Shown: positions 7,799 through 61,718, counted from the stretch's first letter. The stretch is 64,000 nucleotides of DNA from an uncultured Eubacteriales bacterium (GCA_949299535.1 CASGAQ010000007.1:181-64180); one strand, 5' to 3'. The notes: a model not told the origin generated them from the letters alone. Numbers and translations are program-made.

Positions 7799-8048
7799 TT
7801 AAAAGTGCCGTGAATATCAAAAAAATTTTTTGAAAGAGGAGAAGATATAAATTCTCCGATTCACGTGGGAATTATAGCAGATTATGTCGCAAAATGCAAT
7901 AGTTTTACCGAAAAAACCTTGTGGGGAATCCAAATTATCGGCGATTGGCTCTGTTTTTGCCGAAAAACCGCGTTTATAAGTTTTTTTCTTCGTTTTTTTC
8001 CATTATTCTTAAAAAAGCTCCGATTTTCTTGCGAAGCTTAGGAATCAC

Positions 8049-10457
8049 TCACCGCTTCTTCTTTTTTATGCGGTAAACGCATACGCTCATGTCGTCCGCT
8101 TTTTTTCCCGCGTATGCGGCATCCGAGATGATTGCGTCCGCCATGCTCCTTACGTCAAGACGCCATTCATGCTCCAAAAACTCGGCTATCCTGAAAAGTC
8201 CGGCTCCGCCGTCCTGCTCCCCGTCTCCGCCTACTCCGTCAGAGCACATCACGATAACGTCGCCGTCGCAGAGCGAAAACTCCGTCACCTCCGCACTCAC
8301 CTCCGGCAAAATGCCGACGGGAATAGTGCCCGAAGCTATTTTATAAACGCTTCCGCGCCGAGCGATATATGAGGCAGCGGCTCCGCTTTTGGTAAAAGAC
8401 GCCGTGCCGCGTATAAGGTCTATCTCAAGCAGGTCGACGGTCGAAAAACATTCGTTGTTTTTGCTTGAGATAAACATATTGAGCATATCCAAAGTGGTAG
8501 ACCTGCTGTTTCCGCAGGAGAGCAGTTCTTCCAGAAACGTCTTGCATATGCCGGAAGTAAAGCCCGCTTCGCTGCCGCTGCCCATTCCGTCGCATATAAA
8601 GCCGTAGAAGATATCGTCGTGAGATTCCGTGACGCCCACAGCGTCGCCGCAAACAGTCTCTCCCCGTTTTGCCATTTGTCTTCCTGCGTACTCGACTTCG
8701 AACAGCCGCGCGCTTTCAAGCGTCATCGAAACGATATCTCCCTCAAGTGAGTATTGCGGCATGGTAAAAATCCCACCGCAGATATCAGAGCACAATGCGC
8801 GTATATCATACGCGCCGATACCGGAGCGAAGAAGGTCGCGCCCCACCGCGACTATATATTTTTTTCTGCCGCCGCAGACGGCTATGCTTTCCGCGGAGAT
8901 GCCCGCCGCGTCGAACGCGCGCGCAAGACGCTCGGTAAGGCGGCGGTCTACCTCGTATGCTCTGTCGTGCTTCGGCACCGTGTCCGCGATTATCTTTGCC
9001 GCCGCGCCGTAATCGAAAGCGAATATGCGCGCCTTGTCATGCTCTCCGCTCTCTCGCAAAAGCCTTGCGGCGCGTTCGTTTATCTCTGCGGAAAGCTGCT
9101 CTTTTTTTGTGCATTCAAAGTCGATATCCACAGCGTTCTTCGTCGTTTTTTCTCCCGACATTATGCATAACGCCATGTTATGCGCGATATCGTCCGCTGT
9201 CTGACGCGAGCAGCATTCGCCCGCCTCCGGACAATCCGAGCAGTACTCACGAAAAACCTCCCGGCACATATCCGACATCTTGCCGCGATCCGGCAGGCAA
9301 AATTCCGCCGACATATTTTTTATCACTCCGGAAAGAGAAGAGAGCATTCCCGCACGCTTTTCCGCGCGCCTTTCTTTTTCCTCATCGCGCTTTTTCATGA
9401 GGATCGTCCTCATGCAAAGTCTGCTCTGCGTACCGCCCTCGCCGAATGATATGCGCGGCAGTATATCTATCTTCGCCGCTGTCGTCATCAGCACGGCGCC
9501 GACAAGCACTTCCGGCAAAAACGAGAGCACGCCGTCAATTCCCTTGGAATACAGTCCTCCGCTTACGGTGATACCAAGAGAGATAAGCGAGGCGACGACA
9601 GGAGAAAGCTCGTAAAATATTCCCGCCGCCAGTCCGGAAAAGGCAAATATCACCGCATAATCCCCTCCTGCGGCAAGTCCGACAAGAAGCCCTGTTACGG
9701 CTCCTTTCGCTCCGTCTCCGGAAAACGCCGCAAACAGCATTAGCATATACGCGGCCGTCACACCGAGCGAAACGGTAAAAACATATACTTCGGCAAGCGA
9801 ATATACAAAGCAAAAAACAAAAGCGGATTTTCCCGCGGCGGCAGCTCCCGTATTTTTAAAGCTCATATCCTGTGCAAAGTAAAAAAGAAAAGTGAAAAGC
9901 AGAGCCGCTACGGCACAAAAAAGTCCTGCCAAAACATCATATACCGTCCTGCCTGAAACAGCTCTTATAAACGCCCACACGGCTCCCGAACAAACGGCGG
10001 CAAACGCGCGGCAGTAAAGCTCGTCCCTGAGTATAAATTTTTCGAAAAATCCTTCACCGCCGTCGTCCGCCTGCATGAAAGCGCGTCTTTTTCCGAGAAA
10101 GAGAAAATATCTCACCGCACAGGCGGCAACGCAAAGCGCTACGGGAATATAAAGGTCTGCCGACTCATATGATACGGCAAGCCTCAAAAAAGCTCCCAGC
10201 ACAAAGCACAGAACATATTTCTCTGCGGAGCAGACCAGAGCCGGAGCAAGCGGATATGTATCAAACGGGAATTTTGTTCCCGAAAACAAAAAGCTTATGA
10301 AAACTGCAAAAACAGCTCGGAAAGCGCTCCTCAGAAAATTTGAGAGCGATCCCTTTTTTCTTTTGCCGACGCGCGCAAACGCCTCTGTACGAATATTTTC
10401 CGTCATTCTTTCGTCCGTCATTTTTCGAATCCTTCCCGCTTTATTTTTCCTTTTCAA
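8049..10457 (-). CDS. spoIIE: stage II sporulation protein E (membrane PP2C phosphatase)
   Basis: The 802-aa protein has a polytopic N-terminal half of about 330 aa. Its C-terminal PP2C-like domain contains CGDAVGV and FICDGMGSGSEA. Confidence 0.85.
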   Translation of the reverse strand: MKRKNKAGRIRKMTDERMTENIRTEAFARVGKRKKGSLSNFLRSAFRAVFAVFISFLFSGTKFPFDTYPLAPALVCSAEKYVLCFVLGAFLRLAVSYESADLYIPVALCVAACAVRYFLFLGKRRAFMQADDGGEGFFEKFILRDELYCRAFAAVCSGAVWAFIRAVSGRTVYDVLAGLFCAVAALLFTFLFYFAQDMSFKNTGAAAAGKSAFVFCFVYSLAEVYVFTVSLGVTAAYMLMLFAAFSGDGAKGAVTGLLVGLAAGGDYAVIFAFSGLAAGIFYELSPVVASLISLGITVSGGLYSKGIDGVLSFLPEVLVGAVLMTTAAKIDILPRISFGEGGTQSRLCMRTILMKKRDEEKERRAEKRAGMLSSLSGVIKNMSAEFCLPDRGKMSDMCREVFREYCSDCPEAGECCSRQTADDIAHNMALCIMSGEKTTKNAVDIDFECTKKEQLSAEINERAARLLRESGEHDKARIFAFDYGAAAKIIADTVPKHDRAYEVDRRLTERLARAFDAAGISAESIAVCGGRKKYIVAVGRDLLRSGIGAYDIRALCSDICGGIFTMPQYSLEGDIVSMTLESARLFEVEYAGRQMAKRGETVCGDAVGVTESHDDIFYGFICDGMGSGSEAGFTSGICKTFLEELLSCGNSRSTTLDMLNMFISSKNNECFSTVDLLEIDLIRGTASFTKSGAAASYIARRGSVYKIASGTIPVGILPEVSAEVTEFSLCDGDVIVMCSDGVGGDGEQDGGAGLFRIAEFLEHEWRLDVRSMADAIISDAAYAGKKADDMSVCVYRIKKKKR

Positions 10458-18947: not shown

Positions 18948-18989
18948 AAAAAAATCCTCAGACTACTTTCGATGTCTGAGGATTTTTTT
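18948..18989. terminator. bidirectional terminator
   Basis: The hairpin AATCCTCAGAC...GTCTGAGGATT is flanked by an A-run and a T-run. It lies between the rubredoxin gene (+) and the end of the arg-car transcription unit (-). Confidence 0.85.
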
Positions 18990-19170
18990 ATTCGGATTTC
19001 GTGTCGTCTGAGCCGTTTTTTTCTTTCGCATCATTCGATTTCTCATCGAAAATCTTACGCCGTTCTCTCTCTCGCTTTTCCGCCTTTATATTAAAACTGA
19101 CGGTGGAGATGACGGAAAGCACAAAAAGCAAGATAACGACGCCTATCGCAATATATCCCGAAACGCCCAT
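18988..19170 (-). CDS. small single-pass membrane protein, hypothetical (60 aa)
   Basis: The ATG at 19170 lies 6 nt after GGGAGG. The protein has one TM helix and a K/E-rich tail. Function is unknown. Confidence 0.4.
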   Translation of the reverse strand: MGVSGYIAIGVVILLFVLSVISTVSFNIKAEKRERERRKIFDEKSNDAKEKNGSDDTKSE

Positions 19171-19201: not shown

Positions 19202-22200
19202 TTAATATTCGGTAACGCCATCGTAAACGAATTTTGCATCTCCCGAAAGAGTGACGCCGTCGTTCTTATAGTTCACAACAAGGTCGCCTCCGTTAAGTTT
19301 TACTGTAATATCTTTGCCCTTTTCGCAATAACCGTTCTCGCACGCGGCGACGACCGCGGCGCACGCACCCGTACCGCACGCAAAAGTCTCGCCGCATACT
19401 TTTTCATATACGCGCATTTTTATCGTCGTGCTGTCAATAACGCGCACGAACTCCGTATTCACTCCCTCCGGAAAGATCGGAGACTGCAAAAACGCTTTGC
19501 CCAGACTATTTATATCAAGTCCTTCCACCTTGTCGTAAAATACGACGCAGTGCGGACTGCCCATTGAAACGCACGTGATTTTCTGCTCCGTTCCGCCTAT
19601 ATTGACGCTCTGCCCGATTATCTTGCCGGAAGCCGTCTGAAGCGTACACGGTAACTCCGCGCCCGCAAGCAACGCTCTGCCCATATTGACGGTGACATAC
19701 GTCACTTTTCCTCCGCCGGTGTATACGTTCATGTGTCTGACACCATTTACCGTTTCAACGGAAATACATGATTTTGCACATATGTTCTTATCATAGAGAT
19801 ATTTCGCCGTACAGCGTATGCAGTTGCCGGCAATAGCGCTCTCACTTCCGTCGCGGTTGAATATGCGTATGCGAGCGTCTGCCTTATTCGAACGCTCGAT
19901 AAGCACAACACCGTCCGCACCTACGCCGTAATGACGGTCGCACATTGCTATGCACAACGACTCCGGCGAGGTTATACTTCCGTCGAAATTGTCGATAAAT
20001 ATATAGTCGTCGCCGCAGCCCTGCATTTTGGAAAAACGCAGTACGGCGCGCTCTTTTCTTCTGTTGTTGAGATCCACGAGCTCCGTGTTGGAGTCATTGT
20101 ATCTGTCGCGCAGCACCTTTGCAAATGTCATCGCCGCAGGCAATGAGGAAAAACACAAAGCTCCGTTTTTCAGCGCCCTGCGGTGAAGCGCTATGTAATC
20201 TTTTACGGTGGAATCGTAAAGAGCGCCGGCATAGAGCACGAATCCTATCTTGCCTGAATTCAAAAGCGAGGCGCCGTCATCGTTTTCGCGCACGCCGCGC
20301 ACCGTTTCCGCGTTTATGCCGATAGCGCCGAGCCAGCGCGCCGTATCAGACGTGGCGTATATTCTCGCACCTATCGATTCAAACTTTCTTGCAATGGCAG
20401 GCAGATCAGGAAGATAATGCTTTTCTGCGCTGAGCAATACTCCTTTTTCGCGCGTTATTTCAAATCCGGCGGCGCAAAACGCCTTATAAAAAGCCTCATA
20501 GAATGTTCTTCCGACGCCCATGGTCTGACCGGTCGCTTTCATGCGAGGACCTATATAAGAGCCTGCGTCCGTAAGCTTTTCAAAAGAATATACGGGAGCT
20601 TTTACGGCGACATACGGCGGTACGGGGCATATGCCCTTGCCCGCTCCTATGGAAGCAAGAGAACTTCCCGCCATGACCTTTACCGCAATATCCATTGCCG
20701 GTATGCCGGAAGCCTTGGAAATGAACGGAAGCGAACGTGAAACGAACGGCGATATATCGGTAACATATAAGGCGTTTTTATATATGAGAAGCTGAAGATT
20801 TATCATTCCGCGCACGCCGATGGCAACGGCTATCTTTTCGGCAATTTCCGCCGCTTCTGTGATTATCTTATCGCTCACGTCATACGGAGGATATACAGCG
20901 ACGGAATCGCCCTCAAGCACGCCTGCGCGCTCGATATGCTCTATCACCGCGGGGATAAGAACGTCCTTGCCGTCCGATATCGCCGTTATCTCAAGCTCTT
21001 TTCCCTCCATATATTTATCCGCTATGACGGAATTTGTGCCGCCGTCAAGCATTCTCTTGACATAGAGCTTGACTTCCTTATCGTCTTTGGCAACAACGAT
21101 ATTCTGACCGCTGCTCAAATGCTCAGGGCGCAGGACAACGGGATATCCCAGCTTTTCGCAGACGCGAAGAGCCGCCTCATTCGTTTTGATATATTCCGTT
21201 TCGGGAAGGACATAAGCAAACTTTTTCAGTATCTCTTGAACGCGCACGCTCTCCATGCCGAATATTATATCGGCGTCCGCTCCGAAAACCCTGACTCCGT
21301 TCGATATAAGAAATTCCGCAAGTCTTGCCGCGCGTGCCGTTCCGAACGGCAGAAAAACGCCTACAGCGCTCTCGGCTCTGAACACGTTCAAAACATCTTC
21401 TTCAGAACTCGGCTCGAGATAAACTCTGTCAGCCAGACCGTGATCTGCGGAAACGCCGTCTGGATCGCAACTTATGAGGGCGACTTCATACCCGAGCGAG
21501 CGAAGCGTCTTTATGCAGCGCACCGCTGAGTAATCAAACTCGGCTCCCGCGCCTATCCTCACAGGACCTGACGATACGACGAGCGCTATGGGACCGCCGC
21601 TTCTTTTTGACTTGCGCGATTCGCATACGTCGTCATATGTCGAATAAAAACACGGCGACATCTCGCTTCGCTCCTGTCCGCACGCGTCGATCGCCTTGTA
21701 TACGGCGGCGCGCTTTCTGCGAACGGTATCGCCGGATATCTTCTCTATGGAAAGGTCTGTATAACCGAGTTTTTTCGCTTTAATGTATTTTTCATCGTCA
21801 AGACCTTTTGCAAGTTCTTTTTCGAAGTCGGAAATGTGTTTTATCTTGTTTATAAAGAATGAATCTATATTCGTGATATCCCGTATCTCCTCGGCGGAAA
21901 CGCCGCTTGAAAGCGCTTCGAATATCGTGAATAGACGCAGATCGTCCGCATTCTCCAGCCGGTCTTCTAAAGATATGTCTTCATCATACTCGCGGTGAAG
22001 TCCATGTGAATCGGGATTCGTTCCGCGCACGGCTTTTATAAGAGCCGCCTCAAAGCACGGCGCCGCGGCAACAGCCGCCCCCGTGGATTTCATATGCTGT
22101 CCCAACAGACGCGAAACCTTTGCAAATTTATCGAACGGCCATTTCGGAAGTCTGAGCGCGACATAATCCTGTTTCGGCTCGAAAAACGCGCTTTGCTTTC

Positions 22201-23218
22201 CGGAAGGAACTATTTTCACCTCGTCAAGCGAACAGCCGAGCGCCAGATCCGACGCCGTATAAGCTATCGGATATCCGGTAGCACGCTCCGCAAAAGAAGC
22301 GCCTCGCGAAAATCCGACGGTTGCTTCCGTTACGACATATTCAAATTCATCATGTGCAACGGCAAATCTTACACCGCACCAACCGACTGCTCCAAGCGCC
22401 GCGGCGGTCTTTATCGCCATGCTCCTCAGCTCGTCATATTCGCCGGCTGAAAGCGTGAGCACGGGTGTAACCTGCGCGCTGTCGCCGGAATGTATGCCGA
22501 CAGGATCTATATTTTCGATACTGCATACTGCGGCGGCAGAGCCGAATTTATCCCTCAGGACATCTATCTCTATTTCCTTGCGCCCGAAAATATATTTTTC
22601 AACTATGACTCTCTTTGAATGAGAGGCGCCGAGAATCTCCGAAACGATAATTCTCAGCTCTCTGGGAGTATGAGCCGTGCGAAGCTCGCACTTTCCGTAT
22701 TCGGCTGAACTTCTGAGCGTTACGGGATATCCCAGCTTTTCCGCGGCGGCACATGCCTCGTTTGCATCTGCGGCGCTCCTATAAGGAACTGATGGTATTT
22801 CCGCGCCTTCAAGCGTTTTGCGGAACAACTCCGCATCTTTTGTGCGCGATATGGTGTCTTCGCTCACGCCTATGAGCTTTACGCCGAAATCATCAAGAAA
22901 GCCCTTGCGTGAAAGCTCCAGCGCAATGGCAAGAGAATTTTCGCCACCGAAAGAAGCGAAAAGCGCATCGGGTCTTTCTTTTTCTATTAACCTTTTGACC
23001 GTATTGACCGTAAGCGGCTCCAAATATACCGCATCGGCAAGCTCTCCGTCCGTCATTACGCAGGCCGGGTCCGGATCGAGAAGGACCGTAAAAATACCTG
23101 CCTTTCGGAAAACTCCCAAAGACCTGACTCCCGCATTGTCAAACTCCGCTGACTGACCGACAACATCGGCGCCGGCTCCCACAATAAGTATCTTTTTTAT
23201 ATTTCTGTCACGAGGCAT
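19202..23218 (-). CDS. divergent carbamoyl-phosphate synthase large-subunit paralogue fused to a DapF-like (diaminopimelate epimerase fold) domain
   Basis: The first ~1059 of 1338 aa are collinear with CarB (both ATP-grasp halves and an MGS-like end), but the catalytic motifs are eroded. The last 279 aa carry DapF signatures: FSKMQGCGDDY, VSMGSPHCV and GETFACGTGACAA. Confidence 0.8.
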   Translation of the reverse strand: MPRDRNIKKILIVGAGADVVGQSAEFDNAGVRSLGVFRKAGIFTVLLDPDPACVMTDGELADAVYLEPLTVNTVKRLIEKERPDALFASFGGENSLAIALELSRKGFLDDFGVKLIGVSEDTISRTKDAELFRKTLEGAEIPSVPYRSAADANEACAAAEKLGYPVTLRSSAEYGKCELRTAHTPRELRIIVSEILGASHSKRVIVEKYIFGRKEIEIDVLRDKFGSAAAVCSIENIDPVGIHSGDSAQVTPVLTLSAGEYDELRSMAIKTAAALGAVGWCGVRFAVAHDEFEYVVTEATVGFSRGASFAERATGYPIAYTASDLALGCSLDEVKIVPSGKQSAFFEPKQDYVALRLPKWPFDKFAKVSRLLGQHMKSTGAAVAAAPCFEAALIKAVRGTNPDSHGLHREYDEDISLEDRLENADDLRLFTIFEALSSGVSAEEIRDITNIDSFFINKIKHISDFEKELAKGLDDEKYIKAKKLGYTDLSIEKISGDTVRRKRAAVYKAIDACGQERSEMSPCFYSTYDDVCESRKSKRSGGPIALVVSSGPVRIGAGAEFDYSAVRCIKTLRSLGYEVALISCDPDGVSADHGLADRVYLEPSSEEDVLNVFRAESAVGVFLPFGTARAARLAEFLISNGVRVFGADADIIFGMESVRVQEILKKFAYVLPETEYIKTNEAALRVCEKLGYPVVLRPEHLSSGQNIVVAKDDKEVKLYVKRMLDGGTNSVIADKYMEGKELEITAISDGKDVLIPAVIEHIERAGVLEGDSVAVYPPYDVSDKIITEAAEIAEKIAVAIGVRGMINLQLLIYKNALYVTDISPFVSRSLPFISKASGIPAMDIAVKVMAGSSLASIGAGKGICPVPPYVAVKAPVYSFEKLTDAGSYIGPRMKATGQTMGVGRTFYEAFYKAFCAAGFEITREKGVLLSAEKHYLPDLPAIARKFESIGARIYATSDTARWLGAIGINAETVRGVRENDDGASLLNSGKIGFVLYAGALYDSTVKDYIALHRRALKNGALCFSSLPAAMTFAKVLRDRYNDSNTELVDLNNRRKERAVLRFSKMQGCGDDYIFIDNFDGSITSPESLCIAMCDRHYGVGADGVVLIERSNKADARIRIFNRDGSESAIAGNCIRCTAKYLYDKNICAKSCISVETVNGVRHMNVYTGGGKVTYVTVNMGRALLAGAELPCTLQTASGKIIGQSVNIGGTEQKITCVSMGSPHCVVFYDKVEGLDINSLGKAFLQSPIFPEGVNTEFVRVIDSTTIKMRVYEKVCGETFACGTGACAAVVAACENGYCEKGKDITVKLNGGDLVVNYKNDGVTLSGDAKFVYDGVTEY

Positions 23219-23219
23219 A

Positions 23220-24242
23220 TCATTCCCTGCCTTTCATCATATCGGCAAATCTGTCGTAAATAAATTCCGTATCGCACCTTGGGCAGAACTGCACCGAAAA
23301 AGCAAGCTTTTCCGGATAAGAAATACCCTCGCAAACGCCGTTGCCGGCGTTTTCAAATATCACTTTTCCTATCTCCTGAGCGTTCTTGACGATATGCGGG
23401 CTTTCACGCCTTACGATATACATTCGACGGCTTTCAAGCTCTCTTACGGGAACGGAGACATTCTCAGCCGGAAACGGAAGCAAAGAAAACTCCGCGCCCA
23501 TCACTTTTGCCATAAGCAAATGCCCAAGAGAAATGCCCATCATCGGGATCTTGCCCGCTATCTCCTTTATCGCGGACAAGTCTGCCTCATAAAGAGCTTC
23601 TTCCGCGCCACCTGAGATCACAACGCCGTCCGGGCATAGCGAGATTATATCTTTTGCCGAAGTTCCCGCAGGAACTACGCGAACCTTGCAGCCGTGTCTT
23701 TGCAGTGCTTTTACGACGCTCGCCTTTGTTCCGCAGTCGATAAGCACGGTAAAAAACCTCTCGCCCATTTCTCCTGTCGCCGAATATGTAGCACAGTCGC
23801 GTGCGGCGGCTTTTGCATAATATTTTTCTTTATGAGGGAAAACCGACGGCACTTCAGAAAATATCCCGGCACGCTCAATACCGTGAGCACGCGCATAATG
23901 AGAAATAAAGCGAGTATCGACTCCGCATACTCCGCATATCCCGCGGAAAAGCATGAAATTTTCAAGTTCGTCGCGGCCTCGGAATTTATCGGGCGCACCG
24001 CGCACGATAAATCCGCCGGCGGAGATATCGCTTTCAACGTCTTCAGAAACAACGCCCAAAGCGCCGCTTTCGGGAAATTCAGATAAAATAATTTTGCCCG
24101 CATTCATAGGATCTGTCAATATCTCCGTATGCGAGCATACGCCTGTAGAGAGAACAAGCTCTCCGCAGGCGTTTGTTTCAGCGCCGAAGCGCTCTCCCTC
24201 AAAAACCATTCCGTCTTCGAGGACTATATATGCTTTTTTCAT
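23220..24242 (-). CDS. divergent carbamoyl-phosphate synthase small-subunit (CarA-like) paralogue lacking the glutaminase triad
   Basis: The 340-aa protein has the CarA N-terminal pattern (LEDGMVFEGERFGA). Its GATase-like half reads GISLGH instead of GICLGH and VQFCPRC instead of HPE. It ends 1 nt before the CarB-like start. Confidence 0.7.
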   Translation of the reverse strand: MKKAYIVLEDGMVFEGERFGAETNACGELVLSTGVCSHTEILTDPMNAGKIILSEFPESGALGVVSEDVESDISAGGFIVRGAPDKFRGRDELENFMLFRGICGVCGVDTRFISHYARAHGIERAGIFSEVPSVFPHKEKYYAKAAARDCATYSATGEMGERFFTVLIDCGTKASVVKALQRHGCKVRVVPAGTSAKDIISLCPDGVVISGGAEEALYEADLSAIKEIAGKIPMMGISLGHLLMAKVMGAEFSLLPFPAENVSVPVRELESRRMYIVRRESPHIVKNAQEIGKVIFENAGNGVCEGISYPEKLAFSVQFCPRCDTEFIYDRFADMMKGRE

Positions 24243-24244
24243 GT

Positions 24245-25156
24245 TCAGTTCTTATCCTTCATGCACATAACCATGACTGCTTTCTGAGCATGCAGTCTGT
24301 TTTCCGCTTCGTCAAAGATCTCATTCGCGTGAGCTTCAAGAATATCTGCCGTAATCTCTTCTCCGCGGTGTGCCGGAAGACAGTGAAGCACCATAGCGTC
24401 CGGTTTGGCGACGCTCATAAGCTCCGAATTTACCTGATATCCGGCAAATATCTTTTTTCTTTCTTCCGCTTCGGCTTCCTCGCCCATTGACGCCCAAACG
24501 TCGGTATAAACGACGTCCGCGTCTTTTGCGGCTTCGAAAATATCGTCAGTGCAGAGGAAATCTCCGCTCTCGGAAGCCCATTTCATTATGTCCGCATCGG
24601 GTTTATGTGTTTTCGGACAGCCTATCGCAACGGACATTCCCATCTTGATACCGCCGACGATAAGGGAGTTCGCCATATTGTTGCCGTCGCCTATGAAGCA
24701 GAGTTTCTTGCCTTTTATCGAACCCTTGTGTTCACGAATAGTCATGAGGTCGGCAAGCACCTGACAAGGGTGGCAATAGTCCGTAAGTCCGTTGATAACC
24801 GGAATCGAGCCGTATTTTGCGAGATTTTCCACTTCTTCCTGCTCGAAAGTTCTTATCATTATACCGTCAAGATAACGTGAAAGAACACGAGCCGTGTCCT
24901 CTACAGGCTCGCCGCGGCCTATCTGCAAGTCGCGTGGAGAAAGGAACAGCGCACTTCCTCCCAAATCATACATGCCTACTTCAAATGAAACGCGGGTGCG
25001 CGTGGAGGATTTCTGGAATATCATTCCCAAAGTTTTTCCCTTGAGATAATGATGCTCTATGCCGTTTTTCTTGTCATATTTGAGCTGATCCGCAAGATTG
25101 AGTATCTCGATTATCTCTTTTGTTTCAAGGTCCATAAGTTTGAGCAGATGTTTCAT
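24245..25156 (-). CDS. argF: ornithine carbamoyltransferase
   Basis: The motifs STRTRVSFE, HPCQ and HCLPAHRGEE are present. I chose the ATG at 25156, which lies 10 nt after AAGAGG and overlaps the argD stop by 1 nt. Confidence 0.9.
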   Translation of the reverse strand: MKHLLKLMDLETKEIIEILNLADQLKYDKKNGIEHHYLKGKTLGMIFQKSSTRTRVSFEVGMYDLGGSALFLSPRDLQIGRGEPVEDTARVLSRYLDGIMIRTFEQEEVENLAKYGSIPVINGLTDYCHPCQVLADLMTIREHKGSIKGKKLCFIGDGNNMANSLIVGGIKMGMSVAIGCPKTHKPDADIMKWASESGDFLCTDDIFEAAKDADVVYTDVWASMGEEAEAEERKKIFAGYQVNSELMSVAKPDAMVLHCLPAHRGEEITADILEAHANEIFDEAENRLHAQKAVMVMCMKDKN

Positions 25157-26337
25157 TATGCGCATACCTCTTTAATAACTTTTATTGCCTTTTCAAGCTC
25201 TTCAAACGTAATACAAAGCGGAGGAATAAGACGTACTTTATTTTTTGCCGTGAGAAGAAGCACCCCTTTTTCTCTTGCGGCAGAAACGATTTCGGTATTT
25301 TCTTTGTCCGTTTCAAGACCGAGCATAAGTCCCATGCCGGCAATGCTCTTTATACCCTTCGCTCCTGTGAGTTCTTTTACTATATATTCGGATTTTTTTG
25401 TTACATCTTCCAGAAATTCATCCGTAAGGCGCGCAAGTACGTTATTTGCGCCTGCCGCACATACGGGGTTTCCGCCGAAAGTGGCGCCGTGCATACCGGG
25501 CTGATAAATATCCGCCGTCTTTTCGCCGAACATGGTGGCTCCTATCGGAAGTCCCGCGCCTATACCTTTAGCCGTGGATATAATATCGGGTTTTATGCCA
25601 AAGTGCATATATGCATAAAGTTTGCCTGTTCTGCCGTTTCCGCACTGTACCTCGTCGTCTATCATGAGTATGTCGTATTTCTCTGCAAGTTCTGCTATTT
25701 TTGCGACAAACTCTTTTGTAAGAGCCTTCACTCCGCCCTCGCCCTGAACGAGTTCGAACATTATGGCGCAGACTTTGTTTTCGCTCACGTTTTTTTCAAG
25801 AGCAGCGCAGTCATTGGCGGGAGTGTGGATAAAACCGGGCGTCATCGGTCCGAAATGCGTGTGGTATGCAGGCTGACCTGTCGCGGAAAGCGTTGCAAGG
25901 CTTCTGCCGTGGAAGCTGTTTTCAAGCGTGATTATATTGAAATATTCGGGACCTTTTTTTGTAACGCCGTATTCGCGCGCGGCTTTTATCGCACATTCGT
26001 TTGCTTCAGCACCGGAATTGGAGAAGAACACTTTCTTCATTCCCGTGCGCTCGCAAAGCGTTTTTGCAAGTCTTACGCACGGCTCCGAGTAAAAAAGATT
26101 GGATGTGTGCTGGCATTTGCCGAGCTGCTCGGTGACGGCGCTTATCCATTCTTCGTCGCAAACGCCGAAAGTATTTACGGCAACACCCGCACCCATGTCT
26201 ACATATTCTTTTCCTTCATCGTCCTTGAGCATAGCGCCCTTGCCGGAAACTATCTCTACCGGAAAACGTTTGTATGTGTGCGCTATATAAAGCGAATCAG
26301 CCTCTTTTACATTTATATTTGCATCTGTATTTTTCAT
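25156..26337 (-). CDS. argD: acetylornithine aminotransferase
   Basis: The 393-aa protein is a class-III PLP aminotransferase (DEVQCGNGRTG, TAKGIG). It sits in the arg operon. Confidence 0.9.
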   Translation of the reverse strand: MKNTDANINVKEADSLYIAHTYKRFPVEIVSGKGAMLKDDEGKEYVDMGAGVAVNTFGVCDEEWISAVTEQLGKCQHTSNLFYSEPCVRLAKTLCERTGMKKVFFSNSGAEANECAIKAAREYGVTKKGPEYFNIITLENSFHGRSLATLSATGQPAYHTHFGPMTPGFIHTPANDCAALEKNVSENKVCAIMFELVQGEGGVKALTKEFVAKIAELAEKYDILMIDDEVQCGNGRTGKLYAYMHFGIKPDIISTAKGIGAGLPIGATMFGEKTADIYQPGMHGATFGGNPVCAAGANNVLARLTDEFLEDVTKKSEYIVKELTGAKGIKSIAGMGLMLGLETDKENTEIVSAAREKGVLLLTAKNKVRLIPPLCITFEELEKAIKVIKEVCA

Positions 26338-26339
26338 TC

Positions 26340-27221
26340 TTAATCTCCTATCTTATCTCCGGAAATAAGCATAGTTCCCATACCTTCGTCGGTAAGAGTT
26401 TCTATGAGAAGTGAGTGCGGCACTCGTCCGTCGATAATAAACACTTTCTTCACACCGCGGCGAATTGCTTCCGTGCAACATTCAACCTTGGGTATCATAC
26501 CGCCGCATATTATGCCGTTTGAAATGAGTTCATGCGTGTCACTTACGCATATAGTGGAAATAAGCGAAGAAGGATCGTCCTTGTCGCGCAAGATGCCGCT
26601 GATATCCGTCATGGATATAAGGCTCTCCGCCGCAAGCGAGCCGGCTATCTTTGCCGCGGCGGTGTCCGCGTTTACATTGTAAGCGTTCCCCTCGCCGTCA
26701 CAGGCAACGGTTGACACTACCGGAATATAGCCTTTGTCGAGAACATCGAGTATTATTTGAGGGTTTACCTCTGTTATTTCTCCGACATAGCCCAGCGCCG
26801 GATCTTTCGGACGCGCCGATATCATGCGTCCGTCTATGCCGGAAAGGCCTATCGCCTTACCGCCTTGAACGGAGAGAAGATTTACAAGATTTTTGTTTAT
26901 CTTGCCGGCAAGAACCATCTGAACTATCTCGACGGATTCCTTGTCTGTTACGCGTAGTCCGTTTACAAATTGCGTCTCTTTTCCCACCTTGGAGAGCATT
27001 TCCGTTATCTCGGGACCGCCGCCGTGTACGAGCACGACCTTTATGCCTATGAGCGAAAGCAGCACGATATCGCGCATTACCGAATCTTTGAGTTCCTCGT
27101 TTATCATGGCGTTTCCGCCGTATTTTACAACAATTATCTTATCCTTGTATTTCTGTATATAGGGCAGCGCATGTACGATGACCTGCGCCCTTTGTGCGTT
27201 ATCTATTTTCATATTTTCCAT
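26340..27221 (-). CDS. argB: acetylglutamate kinase
   Basis: The 293-aa protein belongs to the amino-acid kinase family (VVKYGGNAM, LVHGGGPEI). Confidence 0.9.
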   Translation of the reverse strand: MENMKIDNAQRAQVIVHALPYIQKYKDKIIVVKYGGNAMINEELKDSVMRDIVLLSLIGIKVVLVHGGGPEITEMLSKVGKETQFVNGLRVTDKESVEIVQMVLAGKINKNLVNLLSVQGGKAIGLSGIDGRMISARPKDPALGYVGEITEVNPQIILDVLDKGYIPVVSTVACDGEGNAYNVNADTAAAKIAGSLAAESLISMTDISGILRDKDDPSSLISTICVSDTHELISNGIICGGMIPKVECCTEAIRRGVKKVFIIDGRVPHSLLIETLTDEGMGTMLISGDKIGD

Positions 27222-27276
27222 AGCCGTTCACCTGCAATATTTCAAATATTTTTGCGTTTGTCTTCGATTCTGTTTA

Positions 27277-28497
27277 TCAAGTTCTGTAATCGCCGTTTAT
27301 CTTGACGTAATCGTATGTCAAGTCACAACCCCACGCAACGGCTTCTCCGCTGCCGCTGCCAAGATTTATAAGAACATTTATCTCTCTTTCGGACAAGACT
27401 TCTTTCGCCGTTGCTTCGGAAAAATCTATTCCCGCGCCGTTTCGGCACACATCGACTCTGCCCGCCTTGCTTTCGAACGAAACGTCTATCTTGGAAACGT
27501 CCACGTCTGCGCCGCTGTATCCTATCGCGCAAAGAACGCGTCCCCAGTTTGCGTCAGCGCCGAACATCGCCGCCTTGAAAAGCGAAGACGTTATTACGGA
27601 TTTTGCGACAGTCTTTGCCGTCTCTTTTGTTTCGGCGCCGCTTACGGAACATTCGATAAGCTTCGTGGCACCTTCGCCGTCGCCCGCTATCTTGCGGCAA
27701 AGATAAACCGTTATTGTATTGAGGGCTTTCATAAATTCGGCAAAGTCCTCTCCCTCGCCTGTGATAGGCTCGTTGCCCGCCATGCCGTTTGCCATAACGG
27801 CAACCATGTCATTTGTAGAAGTATCTCCGTCCACGCTTACCATGTTAAACGTGTTCTGAATATCGGAGGAAAGCGCTTTGCGGAGCATTTCCGGAGCGAT
27901 AGCGGCGTCTGTCGTGATGAATACGAGCATCGTTGCCATGTTCGGGTGTATCATGCCGGAGCCTTTTGCAATACCGCCTATATGACATTCCTTGCCGCCG
28001 ACGGTGAATTTTACCGATATCTCCTTTACGACGGTGTCCGTCGTCATAATGCCCTCTGCGGCATTCAAGCTGTTCTCTTTTGAGCTTCCCAGCTCGGAAA
28101 CTAGCAGGGGAAGTCCGACAGCTATAGGAGTGACGTCGAGCTTCTGACCGATAACGCCGGTGGATGCCACGATAACATCATTCGGCTTAACTGCGATATT
28201 CTCCGACAAAAGCGAGCACATCTTCTCGGCAACCTCAATACCGTCTGCGTTGCAGGTGTTGGCGTTGCCGCTGTTGCAGAGGACCGCCTGTGCCACGCCG
28301 TCGCTGATATGTTTTTTCGTGACCGTAAGAGGCGCGCCTTTTACAAGATTAGTCGTATAAACAGCCGCCGCGGATGCGGGAACCTCGCTGTATATGAGCG
28401 CCAGATCGCGCTTTGTTTTGTTTTTGCGTATGCCGCAGTGTATGCCGGCGGCGCTGAAGCCTTTCGCGGCGCAAACGCCGCCCTCTATGATTTCCAT
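27277..28497 (-). CDS. argJ: bifunctional ornithine acetyltransferase / N-acetylglutamate synthase
   Basis: The 406-aa protein carries the autoprocessing motif ATMLVFITTDA. Confidence 0.9.
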   Translation of the reverse strand: MEIIEGGVCAAKGFSAAGIHCGIRKNKTKRDLALIYSEVPASAAAVYTTNLVKGAPLTVTKKHISDGVAQAVLCNSGNANTCNADGIEVAEKMCSLLSENIAVKPNDVIVASTGVIGQKLDVTPIAVGLPLLVSELGSSKENSLNAAEGIMTTDTVVKEISVKFTVGGKECHIGGIAKGSGMIHPNMATMLVFITTDAAIAPEMLRKALSSDIQNTFNMVSVDGDTSTNDMVAVMANGMAGNEPITGEGEDFAEFMKALNTITVYLCRKIAGDGEGATKLIECSVSGAETKETAKTVAKSVITSSLFKAAMFGADANWGRVLCAIGYSGADVDVSKIDVSFESKAGRVDVCRNGAGIDFSEATAKEVLSEREINVLINLGSGSGEAVAWGCDLTYDYVKINGDYRT

Positions 28498-28515
28498 ATT
28501 TATGTACCTCTTCTT

Positions 28516-29454
28516 TTAAACATGCATTGCTTTTGTCTTTTCGGAGCCGATAACAAGATTAAGGCATTCGATAGCCGCGCCGCAGGCGCCCTTGCCGAGA
28601 TTATCATATCTTGCCGTAAGCAATATTCTTTCTTCATTGCCGAAAACGGATATTTCCATCAGGTCCGTTCCGGACTTTTTGCCTGCCGAGATAAATCCCT
28701 CTTCATCGCCGCCGTCAGCATATTTTACGACGGAACCCGTATATTTTTCGGCATAGATTTTTTTAATTTCCCCGATACCGAAACCGTCCGAAAGTTCGCT
28801 TGCGAAAAGCGGAACGGTCACTTCCATGCCGCTGTAAAAATCGGAAACGACGGGGGAGAATATCGGCGCATTTTCAAGCCCCGTTATTTTCTGCATTTCC
28901 GGCAGGTGTTTGTGTTTCTGGGAAAGAGCGTACTGTCTGGGCGCGCCGAGAAGCGTATCTCTGTCCTCCGCCTCGTAATCCGCTATCATCTTTTTGCCGC
29001 CGCCGCTGTAGCCCGTAATCGAGAAACAAGAGAGTTTCGCCGCAGGAGAAAGCGCGCCGCATTCGATGAGAGGATATATCAGCGCGATGAAACCGCTGGC
29101 ATGACAGCCGGGAACGGCTATTCTCTTGGATGTCTTTATCTTTTCCTCAAAAGAGGGAGAAAGCTCAGGAAAACCGTATGCCCATGCCAGATCTGTTCTG
29201 TGCGCCGTAGATGTGTCGATTAAAACGGTTCGGTTGTTTTCGACCATCGCCGCAGATTCTTTAGCCGCCGCGTCGGGAAGACACAGAAAAGCCACGTCCG
29301 CTGAGTTTATGGCTTTGCGTCTTGCGTCCGCGTCTTTTCTCAGCTCTTCCGGCAGAGTGATAAGCTCTATATCATCTCTCTGAGATATTCTTCTGAAAAT
29401 GTCAAGTCCGGTCGTGCCGGCGCTTCCGTCTATAAAAACTTTGCTTTTTAACAT
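28516..29454 (-). CDS. argC: N-acetyl-gamma-glutamyl-phosphate reductase (short, about 310-aa form)
   Basis: The 312-aa protein has an N-terminal GSAGTTG Rossmann motif and the catalytic-Cys motif PGCHASG. It is the first gene of the arg operon. Confidence 0.85.
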   Translation of the reverse strand: MLKSKVFIDGSAGTTGLDIFRRISQRDDIELITLPEELRKDADARRKAINSADVAFLCLPDAAAKESAAMVENNRTVLIDTSTAHRTDLAWAYGFPELSPSFEEKIKTSKRIAVPGCHASGFIALIYPLIECGALSPAAKLSCFSITGYSGGGKKMIADYEAEDRDTLLGAPRQYALSQKHKHLPEMQKITGLENAPIFSPVVSDFYSGMEVTVPLFASELSDGFGIGEIKKIYAEKYTGSVVKYADGGDEEGFISAGKKSGTDLMEISVFGNEERILLTARYDNLGKGACGAAIECLNLVIGSEKTKAMHV

Positions 29455-51978: not shown

Positions 51979-53244
51979 ATGAAGCTTATCCTTAAAGGCG
52001 GAAACGTTTTCACAAACGGCGCTCTTTCCCCTCTCGATATCCTTATAGAAAACGGCTGCATTAAAGAAACAGCTTGCAAAATCGACGACAAAAACGCGGA
52101 TATTATCGATGTTCGCGGTCTTGCCGTCTTTCCCGGTTTTTCGGATGTTCATGTGCATCTCAGAGAACCGGGTTTTTTATCGAAAGAAACGATCAAAACA
52201 GGTACGCTCGCGGCAGCGCGCGGAGGATATACCGCCGTTTGCTCCATGCCGAATCTTTCGCCGTGTCCGGACACGCTCGAACACCTGAAAGTGCAGCTTG
52301 ACGCGATAGAGCGCGACGCCTGCATAAAAGTCGTTCCCTACGGCACGATAACCGAAAGAGAGTGCGGCGAAAAGCTCTCCGAAATGGAAGCTATGGCACC
52401 TTACGTCGCAGCTTTCTCCGACGACGGACGCGGAGTGCAGAACGATGAGATGATGGAGGCGGCAATGCTCAAGGCAAAAAGCCTTGGCAAGATAATAGCC
52501 GCCCACTGCGAGGACAATTCCCTGCTTCGCGGCGGATATATCCACGACGGCGAATACGCAAAAGCACACGGGCACAGAGGCATTTGCTCCGAAAGCGAAT
52601 GGAAACAGGTCGAACGTGATTTGGAGCTTGTCCGCAAAACAGGCGTATCATACCATGTATGCCACATCTCGACAAAAGAAACGGTGGCGCTTATCAGACA
52701 AGCGAAAAAGGACGGTCTTGACGTAACGTGCGAAACCGGTCCGCATTATCTTACCATGACGGACGCAGACCTTATGGAACACGGCAGATTCAAAATGAAT
52801 CCCCCTCTCCGTGCAGAAGAGGACAGACGTGCGCTCGTAGAAGGACTTCTCGACGGCACGATAGACATGATAGCCACAGACCACGCTCCGCACACCGCGG
52901 AAGAAAAAAGCCGTGGTCTTGAAAAAAGCCCTATGGGCGTCGTCGGACTTGAAACGGCATTTTCGGTGCTCTACACCGAGCTTGTAAAAAAAGGCGTTAT
53001 GACGCTCGATATGCTCATTGAAAAAATGAGCGCCGCTCCCGCAAAGCGATTCGGTCTCGGCGGCAGCAAAATAGCGGTCGGAGAAAAAGCAAACCTTTGC
53101 GTGTTCGACCTTGATAAAGAGTACATAATAGATTCTTCGGAATTTTTATCTATGGGCAAAGCGACTCCGTTTGAAGGAAAAAAAGTTTCGGGGCGCTCAA
53201 AAATGACTATTTTTGGAGGTAAAACAGTATGGCAGGAAAAATGA
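51979..53244 (+). CDS. pyrC: dihydroorotase
   Basis: The metal-binding motif is DVHVHLREPG. The start is the ATG at 51979 after AAAGGAGG. The track ORF has a spurious 32-aa extension. Confidence 0.9.
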   Translation: MKLILKGGNVFTNGALSPLDILIENGCIKETACKIDDKNADIIDVRGLAVFPGFSDVHVHLREPGFLSKETIKTGTLAAARGGYTAVCSMPNLSPCPDTLEHLKVQLDAIERDACIKVVPYGTITERECGEKLSEMEAMAPYVAAFSDDGRGVQNDEMMEAAMLKAKSLGKIIAAHCEDNSLLRGGYIHDGEYAKAHGHRGICSESEWKQVERDLELVRKTGVSYHVCHISTKETVALIRQAKKDGLDVTCETGPHYLTMTDADLMEHGRFKMNPPLRAEEDRRALVEGLLDGTIDMIATDHAPHTAEEKSRGLEKSPMGVVGLETAFSVLYTELVKKGVMTLDMLIEKMSAAPAKRFGLGGSKIAVGEKANLCVFDLDKEYIIDSSEFLSMGKATPFEGKKVSGRSKMTIFGGKTVWQEK

Positions 53245-54320
53245 ACAGAAAGATAGTGCTTGAAAACGGAACCGAATTCTTCGGCTTCGGCTTCGGCGCG
53301 CAGGACGCTTCCCGCGTCTGCGAAATGGTATTCGACACTTCGATGGCGGGATATCAGGAAATAGTTTCGGATCCGTCATACGCCGGCGCCGCCGTCGTAA
53401 TGACATATCCGCTCATCGGAAACTATGGTATAACGGATGAGGATTTTGAGGCGAAAACGCCCACGATAGGCGCTCTTATCGTAAGAGAATACAACGATTT
53501 CCCCTCCAACTTCAGATATACGAAAACGCTTTCCGAGTACCTTGAAGAAAATCACATTCCCGGAATATACGGCATGGACACAAGAGAGATCACTCGCTTT
53601 ATACGTGACAACGGCTCTTGCAGAATAATGATAACAGACGCAGATACCCCCGCCGAGGAAGCTGTTAAGGCTATCAAAAACACTCCCGCTTCTGCCGATA
53701 TATATAAAACGGTAAGTTGCCGCAAGAGATGGTATGCCCGCACGGCAAACGCAAAATACAATGTAGTCGCCATAGACTGCGGCATTAAGCTCAGCACGAT
53801 ACGCACGCTCGGAGACATGGGCTGCAACGTAACGGTAATGCCCGCAAATGCGTCGGTAAAAGATGTTGAAATGATGTCGCCTGACGGTATCATCATCTCT
53901 CAAGGTCCCGGCAACCCCGCAGACGCGGCAGAAGTTGCCGAGCTCATACGCGCGCTCCGCGGAAAATATCCGATATTCGGTATCGGTCTTGGTCATCAGC
54001 TTATTGCTCTTGCTTGCGGCGCAACGACGTCTAAAATGAAGTTCGGTCACCACGGCTGCAATCATCCCGTAAAAGACCTTACAACGGGCAATATCGAAAC
54101 ATTTACACAAAACCACAACTACGTCGTCGACGCGGACAGCATCGTCGGAACGGGACTTGAAATAACGCACATTGATATTATTGACAAAACCGTAGAAGGT
54201 CTGAAATGTGAAAAAGACCGCATATTCTCGGTTCAGTTCGAGCCGACAACCATGTCCGGTCCCCTCGGACGCGCCAATCTCTATGAACAGTTTACGGCTC
54301 TTATGAAGGAGGACAAATAA
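53229..54320 (+). CDS. carA: carbamoyl-phosphate synthase small subunit (glutaminase triad not conserved)
   Basis: The protein has the strong CarA pattern [27 protein letters not shown] and [13 protein letters not shown]. However it reads GIGLGHQ and VQFEPTT at the Cys and His-Pro-Glu positions. An alternative start lies at 53241. Confidence 0.85.
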
Positions 54321-57300: not shown

Positions 57301-57502
57301 CGATTCCATTCGTCAGGGATATGTGACATACGTTATCAACACAAGAAATCTCGACGCCGCAACGGGAACATCTTCCGACGGTTTCCAGATTCGTCAGTGT
57401 GCAACGGAAAATAACGTTTCCATCTTCACATCTCTCGACACGCTCAAAGTCCTTCTCGACGTACTTGAGGAGCAGACCATCTGCATCTCAACGATAAACT
57501 GA
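54323..57502 (+). CDS. carB: carbamoyl-phosphate synthase large subunit
   Basis: The 1059-aa protein has canonical motifs in both halves: [42 protein letters not shown] and [19 protein letters not shown]. Confidence 0.95.
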
Positions 57503-60599: not shown

Positions 60600-60635
60600 T
60601 ATCTTTTGATTCTGATGGAGATGGAGATGGGAAAA

Positions 60636-61718
60636 ATGAGAAGCCTTATTGACATTCTGGATCTATCCGTCCAAGAGATCGATTCCATAATCGAAACGGC
60701 GGCGGATATCAAAAAAGATCCCGCGAAATATTCCGAAAAATGTCGCGGCAAGAAGCTTGCTACGCTCTTTTTCGAGCCATCCACAAGAACTCGACTGAGC
60801 TTTGAAGCAGCAATGTACGAACTCGGCGGAAATGTGCTCGGTTTTTCAGAAGCGAGATCCTCCTCTGCCTCAAAAGGTGAAAGCATGGCGGATACAGCGA
60901 CCGTTGTAAGCGGATACGCCGATATCATAGCTATACGCCACCCCAAAGAGGGCGCGCCGCTCGTAGCCTCACAGCATGCATATGTGCCGATAATCAACGC
61001 AGGAGACGGCGGACACAACCACCCGACACAGACGCTTGCCGACCTTTTCACTATCAAGTATGAAAAAGGAAGATTCGAAAATCTCACCGTGGGACTTTGC
61101 GGCGACCTCAAGTTCGGAAGAACCGTTCACTCGCTCATCGCCGCGCTTTCGCGCTATAAAGGGGTAAAATTCATACTCATCTCTCCGAAAGAGCTTCGCA
61201 TACCCAGCTATGTAAAGCATGAGATTCTTGCAAAGGCTGATGTCGAATACATCGAAACGGAAAATCTCGAACAGGCTCTCCCCGAATTGGACGTGCTTTA
61301 TATGACAAGGATACAGCGTGAGCGTTTTTCCGATCCCAATGAATACGAAAGACTCAAAGACAGCTATATCCTTACGGCAGATATGCTCAATTTGGCAAAA
61401 AGCGACCTTTGCATAATGCACCCTCTGCCCCGCGTAAACGAAATTTCCGTGGCAGTAGATAAGGATCCCCGCGCCTGCTATTTCAAGCAAACGCTTTACG
61501 GAAAGTATATGCGTATGGCGCTTATCCTTTTCCTTCTCGACGAAAAGCAGAAGAATGTACCGACAAAAGTAATAAACAAGAAATTCTCCTACGACCATGT
61601 CTGCAAAAATCCGAACTGTATAACCTCAACAGAGCAGGAACTGCCGCAGATATTCTGGTGTGCAAACGAAGAACAAAATATTTACCGCTGCGTCTGGTGC
61701 GAAAGCAGAGCTAAATAA
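60636..61718 (+). CDS. pyrB: aspartate carbamoyltransferase catalytic chain with a C-terminal PyrI-type zinc-domain extension
   Basis: The motifs [13 protein letters not shown] and HPLPR are present. The last ~57 aa contain CKNPNCI...C..C, matching the PyrI zinc-domain pattern. Confidence 0.88.

Follow-up and report, generated by a model that had tools for sequence, protein, structure and literature searches.

Arginine-specific carbamoyl-phosphate synthetases (CPSases) of the Firmicutes are encoded by a second carAB pair that lies within the arginine (arg) operon, beside the CPSase of the pyrimidine (pyr) operon. Bacillus subtilis carries the operon argCJBD-carAB-argF, and Lactobacillus plantarum has two CPSases. 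In the glutaminase-like domain of human CPS1, the catalytic Cys is replaced by Ser. The subject of the present analysis is an arg-linked CPSase pair in a 64,000-nucleotide stretch of DNA from an uncultured Eubacteriales bacterium (GCA_949299535.1 CASGAQ010000007.1:181-64180; hereafter the window, with positions counted from its first letter). The pair consists of a CarA-like open reading frame (ORF) of 340 residues (carA', 23220-24242) and a CarB-like ORF of 1338 residues (carB'~dapF-like, 19202-23218), both on the minus strand directly after argCJBDF. It resembles the Firmicutes arginine-specific CPSase in its position within the arg operon beside a pyr-operon CPSase, in full-length homology, and in domain order. 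It differs in (i) the gene order argF-carA-carB, (ii) a C-terminal DapF-like domain, and (iii) the apparent death of all three active sites.

Judged from its sequence, the arg-linked pair is shown to derive from an arginine-specific CPSase and to be catalytically dead. The reading favored here, to which about even credence is given, is that this CPSase remnant, with its fold kept, serves to carry a DapF-like domain that is still under selection, while carbamoyl phosphate comes from the pyr-operon CPSase. Such a locus is an uncommon intermediate, in which a large two-subunit enzyme has lost all three active sites with its frames open and its fold constrained, and it provides a natural test of why dead enzymes are retained; the likely answer in this case is the fused passenger domain. 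Automatic annotation would label the two genes as a functional arginine-specific CPSase and overestimate the capacity for glutamine-dependent carbamoyl-phosphate synthesis. A remnant confined to a single species is an evolutionary snapshot rather than a new system; better leads are offered by the CarB~DapF fusion, which is family-wide, and by the repeated loss of glutamine dependence.

Catalytic residues of the arg-linked pair

Both CarA' and CarB' are full-length homologs of the CPSase subunits with depressed profile scores (Pfam, NCBIfam). The alignment of CarB' to Escherichia coli CarB covers residues 1-995 and reproduces the architecture of the latter, with two halves composed of pre-ATP-grasp and ATP-grasp domains, an oligomerization domain, and an MGS-like domain. 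Pfam assigns PF25596 (two matches), PF02786 (two matches), and PF02787 (CPSase_L_D1/D2/D3), followed by a weak MGS match and DAP_epimerase. CarB' scores 895 bits against NF003671, which is above the cutoff of 599 and compares with 1470 bits for the pyr-operon CarB of the same window, and 877 bits against TIGR01369, below the cutoff of 1027. CarA' falls under both of its equivalog cutoffs, with scores of 219.2 for NF009475 (cutoff 221) and 192.5 for TIGR01368 (cutoff 307).

Residues were mapped by phmmer against E. coli CarB (PDB 1bxr) and by MAFFT alignment with 17 and then 119 orthologs. The tracked sites (E. coli numbering) are R129, R169, G175-G180, E215, H243, Q285, E299, N301, R303, and R306 in the first half and R675, R715, G721, G722, E761, H788, Q829, E841, N843, R845, and R848 in the second. 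CarB' has changed 14 of the 25 tracked ATP- and Mg-binding positions, and the changes are spread over both ATP-grasp halves, which bears out the claim of an earlier sequence-based note (the original prediction) that the glycine-rich loops and the E-x-N-P-R motif are eroded in both. The phmmer alignment to 1bxr is essentially gap-free across the two halves, and MAFFT gives the same residue mapping, so that a shift in the manual alignment behind the original prediction is ruled out.

The N-terminal ATP-grasp half (residues 1-400; 22019-23218) is catalytically degenerate in the alignments to E. coli CarB. It reads LRSSAEYGKCELR at residue 168 and VTEATVGFSRGASFAERATG at residue 296; its glycine loop GGSGGG has become GKCELR (22679-22696), and its E-x-N-P-R motif has become E-A-T-V-G (within 22304-22333). 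The substitutions are R129A, G176K/S177C/G178E/G179L/G180R, Q285R, N301T, and R303G, with E299 retained. The oligomerization domain (residues 401-540; 21599-22018) is marked by a PF02787 match at residues 420-494. The C-terminal ATP-grasp half (residues 541-915; 20474-21598) is also degenerate by alignment to E. coli CarB and reads LRPEHLSSGQNI at residue 696 (21098-21133) and VTDISPFVSRSLPFISKASG at residue 819, with VTDISPFVSR at 20735-20764; its changes are R675S, G721S, H788L, E841D, N843S, and R845F. The MGS-like allosteric domain (residues 916-1045; 20084-20473) is weakly recognizable, at 21.6 bits for PF02142 against a cutoff of 24.1. All of these segments lie on the minus strand.

The 90% identity cluster of the window protein contains four sequences, whose differences amount to 0-1 residues or, in one variant, to a substitution plus an in-frame deletion. 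That variant, P0122, comes from a single contig and combines P603S with loss of the eight residues LPFISKAS (residues 830-837; 20708-20731), which removes the normally invariant PF(V/I)SKA(T/S) motif after R848. The exact carB' protein sequence occurs on nine contigs from at least six samples, and an assembly artifact is thereby ruled out.

CarA' has the appearance of a dead glutaminase on translation and alignment with 15 orthologous CarA sequences, most of which retain GICLGH and HPE. Its nucleophile motif is GISLGH (23520-23537; Cys269 to Ser, with the Ser codon TCT at 23529-23531), and the remainder of the triad is replaced in VQFCPRC at residue 317 (23274-23294; His353 to Cys and Glu355 to Arg). 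The GHRGxNxP motif has become FPAENVSVP (23448-23474) and is unrecognizable. Both CPSase subunits of the arg-linked pair are accordingly predicted to be catalytically dead.

The motifs that the original prediction quoted for the arg-linked CarB, their four canonical counterparts in the pyr-operon CarB, and the two CarA-like substitutions were all found exactly where it had placed them. The same holds for the two ORFs, which directly follow argCJBDF on the same strand at matching coordinates, with gaps of 2 nt between argF and carA' and 1 nt between carA' and carB'. Its description of the larger ORF as CarB-like stands in that homology to CarB runs through the full length of the latter, but the protein is not a pure CarB. 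The length of 1338 residues is due to a C-terminal DapF-like domain of ~280 residues, which had been overlooked.

The DapF-like domain and the fusion family

The DapF-like domain (residues ~1060-1338; 19205-20041, minus strand) matches PF01678 twice (E = 8.5e-53), exceeds the family score of TIGR00652 with 248 bits (cutoff 114.65), and is aligned by phmmer to DapF in the PDB (2otn, E = 6e-59). A linker conserved in the family alignment (20042-20083, minus strand) joins it to the CarB body; the retention of family-conserved positions jumps from residue 1041, and the family-conserved motif NTELVD(I/L)N lies at 20066-20089. Compared with DapF structures (PDB 2otn, 1bwz, 2gke), the window domain is homologous throughout. 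Alignment to Haemophilus influenzae DapF (1bwz) shows that the second catalytic Cys (C217) is retained in ACGTGA (within 19364-19405), as are the diaminopimelate (DAP)-binding residues N64, N75, N190, and E208. It differs from DapF in that the first catalytic Cys (C73) is Ala (AIAGNCIRC, 19811-19837), which leaves the domain without the two-cysteine pair, in that N11, N157, and R209 are replaced by Asp, Ser, and Lys, respectively, and in its fusion to a CarB body of 1059 residues. The window domain is also homologous to the O-ureidoserine racemase DcsC (7vdy, E = 1.6e-37), and the 2,4-diaminobutyrate racemase PddB (PMC8225329) is another DapF-fold enzyme that acts on a different amino acid.

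The loss of the first Cys is a property of the whole fusion family. In all 120 fused proteins, the residue at C73 is Ala or Gly, and the second Cys (ACGTGA) is present in 119 of them; one basal fused protein, L006, still has CGNG. Because the first catalytic Cys is missing family-wide, the DapF-like domain is probably not a two-base epimerase. Binding of a diamino or ureido amino acid, or one-base chemistry, may be its role.

In a scan across species-representative genomes, 17 complete orthologs of 1340-1366 residues turned up in metagenome-assembled genomes of Oscillospiraceae and other Clostridia, and a search of 5.8 billion proteins found more than 119 clusters of CarB~DapF proteins of ~1340 residues (P0002-P0120 among them). 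CarB~DapF loci occur in gut and rumen Oscillospirales (L001-L014, L027, L040, L048, L056, L078, L187, and others), and the operon argCJBDF-carA-carB~dapF is common to at least seven genomes. This arrangement, ending in an arginine-specific CPSase, is shown to be the ancestral arg operon of the gut Oscillospirales group. When 50%-identity representatives were searched with the allosteric plus DapF-like region, very few representatives of the fused family were returned, followed by ordinary stand-alone DapF. The only database names for the fusion are “carbamoyl-phosphate synthase large subunit” and “diaminopimelate epimerase, partial,” and literature searches returned no described CarB-DapF fusion.

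Five related genomes carry a stand-alone dapF with the canonical active site (MCGNGIRC) ~20 nt downstream of a canonical carB (L100 7373-8158; L107 9200-9982; L111 9192-9956; L112 9199-9981; L114 9202-9984). The fusion plausibly arose from a gene order of this kind. No second dapF was found within the window.

The window protein shares with the other Oscillospirales fusions, as their ortholog, the operon, the linker motif, and a DapF-like domain lacking the first Cys. It differs in its catalytic positions: 118 of the 119 related fused proteins keep all 25, and the remaining one differs at a single position. All 17 complete orthologs likewise retain every tracked CarB residue. Among the 119 nearest clusters, no other lineage proved to have a dead copy. 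Among the 5.8 billion proteins, the closest relative outside the cluster of the window protein is intact and 55% identical, and nothing exceeds this value for the full protein or 71% for the DapF-like domain. A closer relative, either dead or stand-alone, is therefore absent from that set. The alignments place the decay of the CPSase in the window's lineage specifically. The architecture is thus widespread, but the dead form is limited to one near-clonal species.

The position after argF is variable among close relatives. In an ArgF-based scan, the closest genome is L167, whose Arg proteins are 95% (ArgF), 90% (ArgJ), 87% (ArgB), 85% (ArgC), and 81% (ArgD) identical to those of the window, with syntenic flanking genes. 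The six closest relatives that are readable beyond argF (L167, L169, L170, L171, L173, and L174) have unrelated genes there, with neither carA nor carB. The intact module lies directly 3′ of argF in UMGS731 (ArgF 91%; contigs L172 and L001). Among 68 informative relatives (ArgF ≥81%), 40 have no CPSase-like gene after argF, 18 have carB~dapF without any carA, and about 10 have carA and carB~dapF. The carA-less loci include L195, L199, L212, L217, L218, L220-L222, and L228 as well as L230, L232, L234, L237, L238, L240, and L245, with argF at ~8001-8903 and carB~dapF from ~8928. The module after argF is facultative and has been lost repeatedly in the clade.

Evolutionary rates and the retention of a dead enzyme

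Branch lengths were obtained from triplets of the window, UMGS731 (the closest genome still with the module), and outgroups. The whole CarB body has a window branch of 0.69 against 0.09 for UMGS731 (ratio 7.4). Its N-terminal ATP-grasp half has 0.72 against 0.098 (7.4) and its C-terminal half 0.69 against 0.067 (10.3), while the ratios for the oligomerization and MGS-like domains are 3.6 and 5.9, respectively. With CarA' at 0.78 against 0.17 (4.5), the pair has evolved 4-10 times faster on the window branch, the DapF-like domain excepted. The latter has a window branch of 0.24 against 0.105 (2.3), which is about threefold shorter than that of the CarB' body and similar to that of ArgD. The five Arg enzymes ArgC, J, B, D, and F have window branches of 0.18, 0.11, 0.11, 0.24, and 0.04, respectively, with ratios of 0.8-1.8, and argCJBDF (24245-29454) is intact with normal evolutionary rates.

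Sequence identities follow the same division. The full-length window protein is 42-55% identical to its fused orthologs. For the CarB' body, the identity of the window to the orthologs is 44-47%, compared with 71-76% among the orthologs themselves, and for CarA' the corresponding values are 38-41% and 53-64%. The DapF-like part (51-62% versus 57-67%) and the Arg enzymes (48-81% versus 49-78%) are far closer to the mutual range. Retention of family-conserved positions averages ~0.57 up to residue 1040 and is 0.83-1.0 in most 40-residue windows from 1041, with a dip to 0.70 at residues 1241-1280. Near-invariant positions (≥97%) are changed at 194 of 501 sites in the CarB body (39%), where the median for the other 119 proteins is 1 and the highest value 18. 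The DapF-like domain is changed at 5 of 76 (other proteins, median 0). The difference between the two regions is significant (Fisher p = 1.8e-9).

Even in comparison with the closest relative, synonymous sites have reached saturation (dS, the synonymous substitutions per site, is ~1.6 for the arg genes), and the proportion of differing synonymous sites (pS) against the nearest intact ortholog is 0.73-0.77; only the nonsynonymous rate (dN) and relative branch lengths are therefore usable. The dN of the CarB' body against UMGS731 is 0.42, and that of intact pairs is ~0.20. The ratio dN/dS on the window branch is estimated at roughly 0.2-0.45, compared with about 0.03 for intact CarB. Contigs within the species differ by 0-2 nt, which leaves dN/dS among its own copies without power.

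Relaxation has not amounted to free decay. The 1678 codons of carA' and carB' contain no stop, frameshift, or large deletion, and the lineage-specific indels are five of 1-2 residues in CarB' and six small ones in CarA'. Missense-neutral simulations were started from the UMGS731 sequence and ended once retention of invariant positions had fallen to the observed 60%, with 100-200 runs per mutation model. Depending on the model, 7-24 stop mutations had to be discarded before this level of divergence was reached, with a minimum in any run of 2-13. Replacements at family-invariant positions are conservative in 40% of cases, against 24-25% ± 3 in the simulations, and their mean BLOSUM62 score is +0.04, against −0.62 to −0.71 ± 0.11. 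Retention is 79% for Gly/Pro and 75% for Lys/Tyr/Phe, the latter against 41-58% simulated, and Ile/Thr/Asn/Met/Gln are preferentially lost (29%). Mutation bias was considered as a cause and rejected, given that AT-to-GC bias reproduces the Gly/Pro retention but neither the Lys/Tyr/Phe retention nor the conservative excess. The absence of stops and frameshifts, the tiny indels, and the conservative replacements together argue that the frame, the length, and the physicochemistry of the fold have been under selection, while the active sites have not. As in a pseudoenzyme, catalytic residues are lost from ORFs that are intact and fold-constrained.

The comparisons show that CPSase catalysis was lost in the lineage of the window species alone. 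The CarA triad and the ATP and Mg ligands of both halves changed, and the rates of CarA' and of the whole CarB' body then rose. On the favored reading, selection would act mainly on the DapF-like domain. No Shine-Dalgarno sequence was found before the first Met of this domain, so that its synthesis would require translation of all 1059 codons upstream. The fold of CarB', together with CarA', would be retained as a non-catalytic carrier that serves folding, solubility, or oligomerization; the need for such a carrier is suggested by the conservative replacements and the lack of deletions. Conservation of the DapF-like domain offers a simpler reason for the open frame than a new role of the CPSase body.

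Several observations weigh against this reading. The six closest relatives have no carA or carB after argF, and nothing more than 71% identical to the DapF-like domain was found, so the domain is dispensable in sister lineages. The five near-invariant changes in the domain exceed those of every one of the 119 orthologs (maximum 3) and include the Arg of DapF that binds the substrate carboxylate (R to K) and a neighboring Gly; the domain itself may be drifting or changing function. A weak promoter-like match ~70 nt upstream of the domain leaves room for its independent expression, and we know of no function for DapF-like domains that have only one catalytic Cys. The in-frame eight-residue deletion in the CarB' body of one population variant suggests continuing erosion. 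Finally, because a single near-clonal species has the dead form, purifying selection between independent dead copies is not measurable.

An unlikely alternative is that the dead CarA'/CarB' body is kept for what it does itself, serving as a scaffold or as a regulatory or allosteric partner. It could, for example, form a hetero-oligomer with the pyr CPSase or ArgF that directs or de-represses carbamoyl phosphate for arginine, with the DapF-like domain as a ligand sensor. The fold has evidently been kept (intact ORFs, few indels, conservative replacements, retained Gly/Pro/Lys/Tyr/Phe), the pair appears from gene spacing to be co-transcribed and translationally coupled with argF, and one CPSase apparently serving two pathways may create a regulatory need. 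However, no conserved interface, ligand site, or sub-domain emerges in the CarB' body or CarA', whose six sub-domains all stand at 0.63-0.84 substitutions per site; the closest relatives and 40 of the 68 informative ones manage without the pair at this position; and no second dead-copy lineage was found. For an established pseudoenzyme, one would expect several independent species or strains to share the dead form and their copies to show a dN/dS below 1; the form seen here belongs to one near-clonal species. The original prediction held that the pair is probably maintained for a non-CPSase role, such as a scaffold, a regulatory partner, or new chemistry. Its premise that free decay is unlikely survives, but nothing points to any of these roles for the CarA'B' body, and a conserved non-CPSase pair is contradicted by the intact catalytic positions of 118 of the 119 fused relatives and by the absence of carA and carB after argF in the six closest ones.

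It is doubtful that the two ORFs are plain pseudogenes on their way out, functionless and open through recent loss and chance. Consistent with this explanation, the change is limited to one lineage, the module is absent after argF in many relatives (including the six closest readable ones), rates are elevated near-uniformly in domains whose constraint normally differs, an in-frame deletion occurs in a population variant, and invariant sites of the DapF-like domain have changed in excess. Neutral divergence to the same level would nevertheless have produced stops in every simulated run, where the pair has none, and frameshifts are absent, with five indels of 1-2 residues in the 1338 codons of carB'. 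The replacements are far better than random, and dN has reached 0.42 while synonymous sites are saturated. Neutrality also predicts equal rates across domains, whereas the DapF-like domain is about three times slower than the CarB' body. The original judgment that a freely decaying pseudogene is improbable is upheld by these results.

A more elaborate proposal receives little credence. CarA'B'~DapF, expressed from the arg operon, would be a regulatory pseudoenzyme in which the DapF-like domain, short of one catalytic Cys but with most of its ligand-binding residues, senses a diamino or ureido amino acid such as ornithine, citrulline, or DAP and the body docks on the one remaining, ammonia-dependent pyr CPSase or on ArgF, diverting carbamoyl phosphate to arginine or freeing it from pyrimidine feedback. 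Across the family, in more than 100 gut species, the DapF-like domain would be the allosteric sensor module of arginine-specific CPSases. Literature searches returned no described dead CarAB or CPSase pseudoenzyme.

That the pair is still an enzyme, making carbamoyl phosphate or running a new ATP-grasp reaction in a rebuilt active site, is very improbable: homology is full-length with every domain present, and E299, E215, H243, R169, R306, R715, E761, Q829, and R848 are retained, but unrelated residues have taken the place of both glycine-rich loops, the Asn/Arg pairs of both E-x-N-x-R motifs, R129/R675, and H788 in the two halves at once, with no compensating conserved pattern, since no other sequence shares these changes, the CarA' triad and GHRGxNxP are lost, and the rise in rate is spread across the whole body instead of being focused on a remodeled site.

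The pyr-operon synthetase and the genomic context

The pyr operon of the window (pyrC-carA-carB-pyrK-pyrD-pyrF-pyrE-pyrB) contains the second CPSase, which the original prediction had treated as the canonical one. Its CarB (54323-57502, plus strand) has every catalytic residue intact and is 74-80% identical to CarB of many Oscillospirales. Its CarA partner (53229-54320, plus strand) also lacks the triad, which had been overlooked: the expected GICLGH and VQ(Y/F)HPE read GIGLGH (Gly codon 53985-53987) and VQFEPT (54231-54248), corresponding to Cys to Gly, His to Glu, and Glu to Thr. The same loss occurs in 7 of 48 related pyr-operon CarA proteins (L087, L089, L091, L093, L095, L099, and L101). 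With CarB intact and CarA without its triad, the pyr CPSase probably uses free ammonia.

The pyr-operon enzyme is presumed to be the sole active CPSase. The Arg enzymes carry their catalytic motifs in translation (STRTR, HPCQ, and HCLP in ArgF, ATML in ArgJ, and GCHA in ArgC), and the arginine pathway therefore needs carbamoyl phosphate, with which the pyr-operon CPSase would supply the intact ornithine carbamoyltransferase (ArgF).

CPS I (human CPS1, PDB 5dou; PMC4655335) offers a parallel in that its CarA-type domain lacks the catalytic Cys and is kept as a non-catalytic part. It differs from the arg-linked pair in that the synthetase halves of CPS1 are fully active, whereas those of the window pair are dead; the pyr-operon CarA, with Cys changed to Gly, is the copy that resembles the CPS1 situation. 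Dead CarA triads in both operons and carA-less carB~dapF operons suggest that glutamine has been repeatedly abandoned as the nitrogen donor in this gut clade. Such a repeated loss of glutamine dependence suggests ammonia-dependent bacterial CPSases in ammonia-rich guts. Literature searches returned nothing relevant on a bacterial ammonia-dependent CPSase with a lost Cys.

The arg operon begins with argC (28516-29454), the first of seven head-to-tail ORFs on the minus strand, and continues with argJ (27277-28497), argB (26340-27221), argD (25156-26337), and argF (24245-25165) before carA' and carB'~dapF-like. Near its end, a small membrane-like ORF of 60 residues (18988-19170, minus strand), identified by direct reading, begins 32 nt beyond the stop codon of carB' and encodes one predicted hydrophobic helix and a charged tail. 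Gene callers give an 83-residue version instead, which overlaps the 3′ end of carB'. A terminator hairpin with a T-run (18948-18981, minus strand), likewise read directly, closes the operon.

Close relatives have a rearrangement breakpoint directly after argF (L167 8983-11897; L169 9042-13939). L167 has trkA/trkH-like genes and an inverted flanking block at this point, and L169 carries genes for an XRE-type regulator and glmS as well as spoIVA-like genes. In the pyr operon of the window, the C terminus of the ORF for the aspartate carbamoyltransferase PyrB (60606-61718, plus strand) matches the zinc-binding domain of PyrI (PF02748, residues 333-368), which suggests that PyrB is a catalytic chain fused to part of the regulatory chain.

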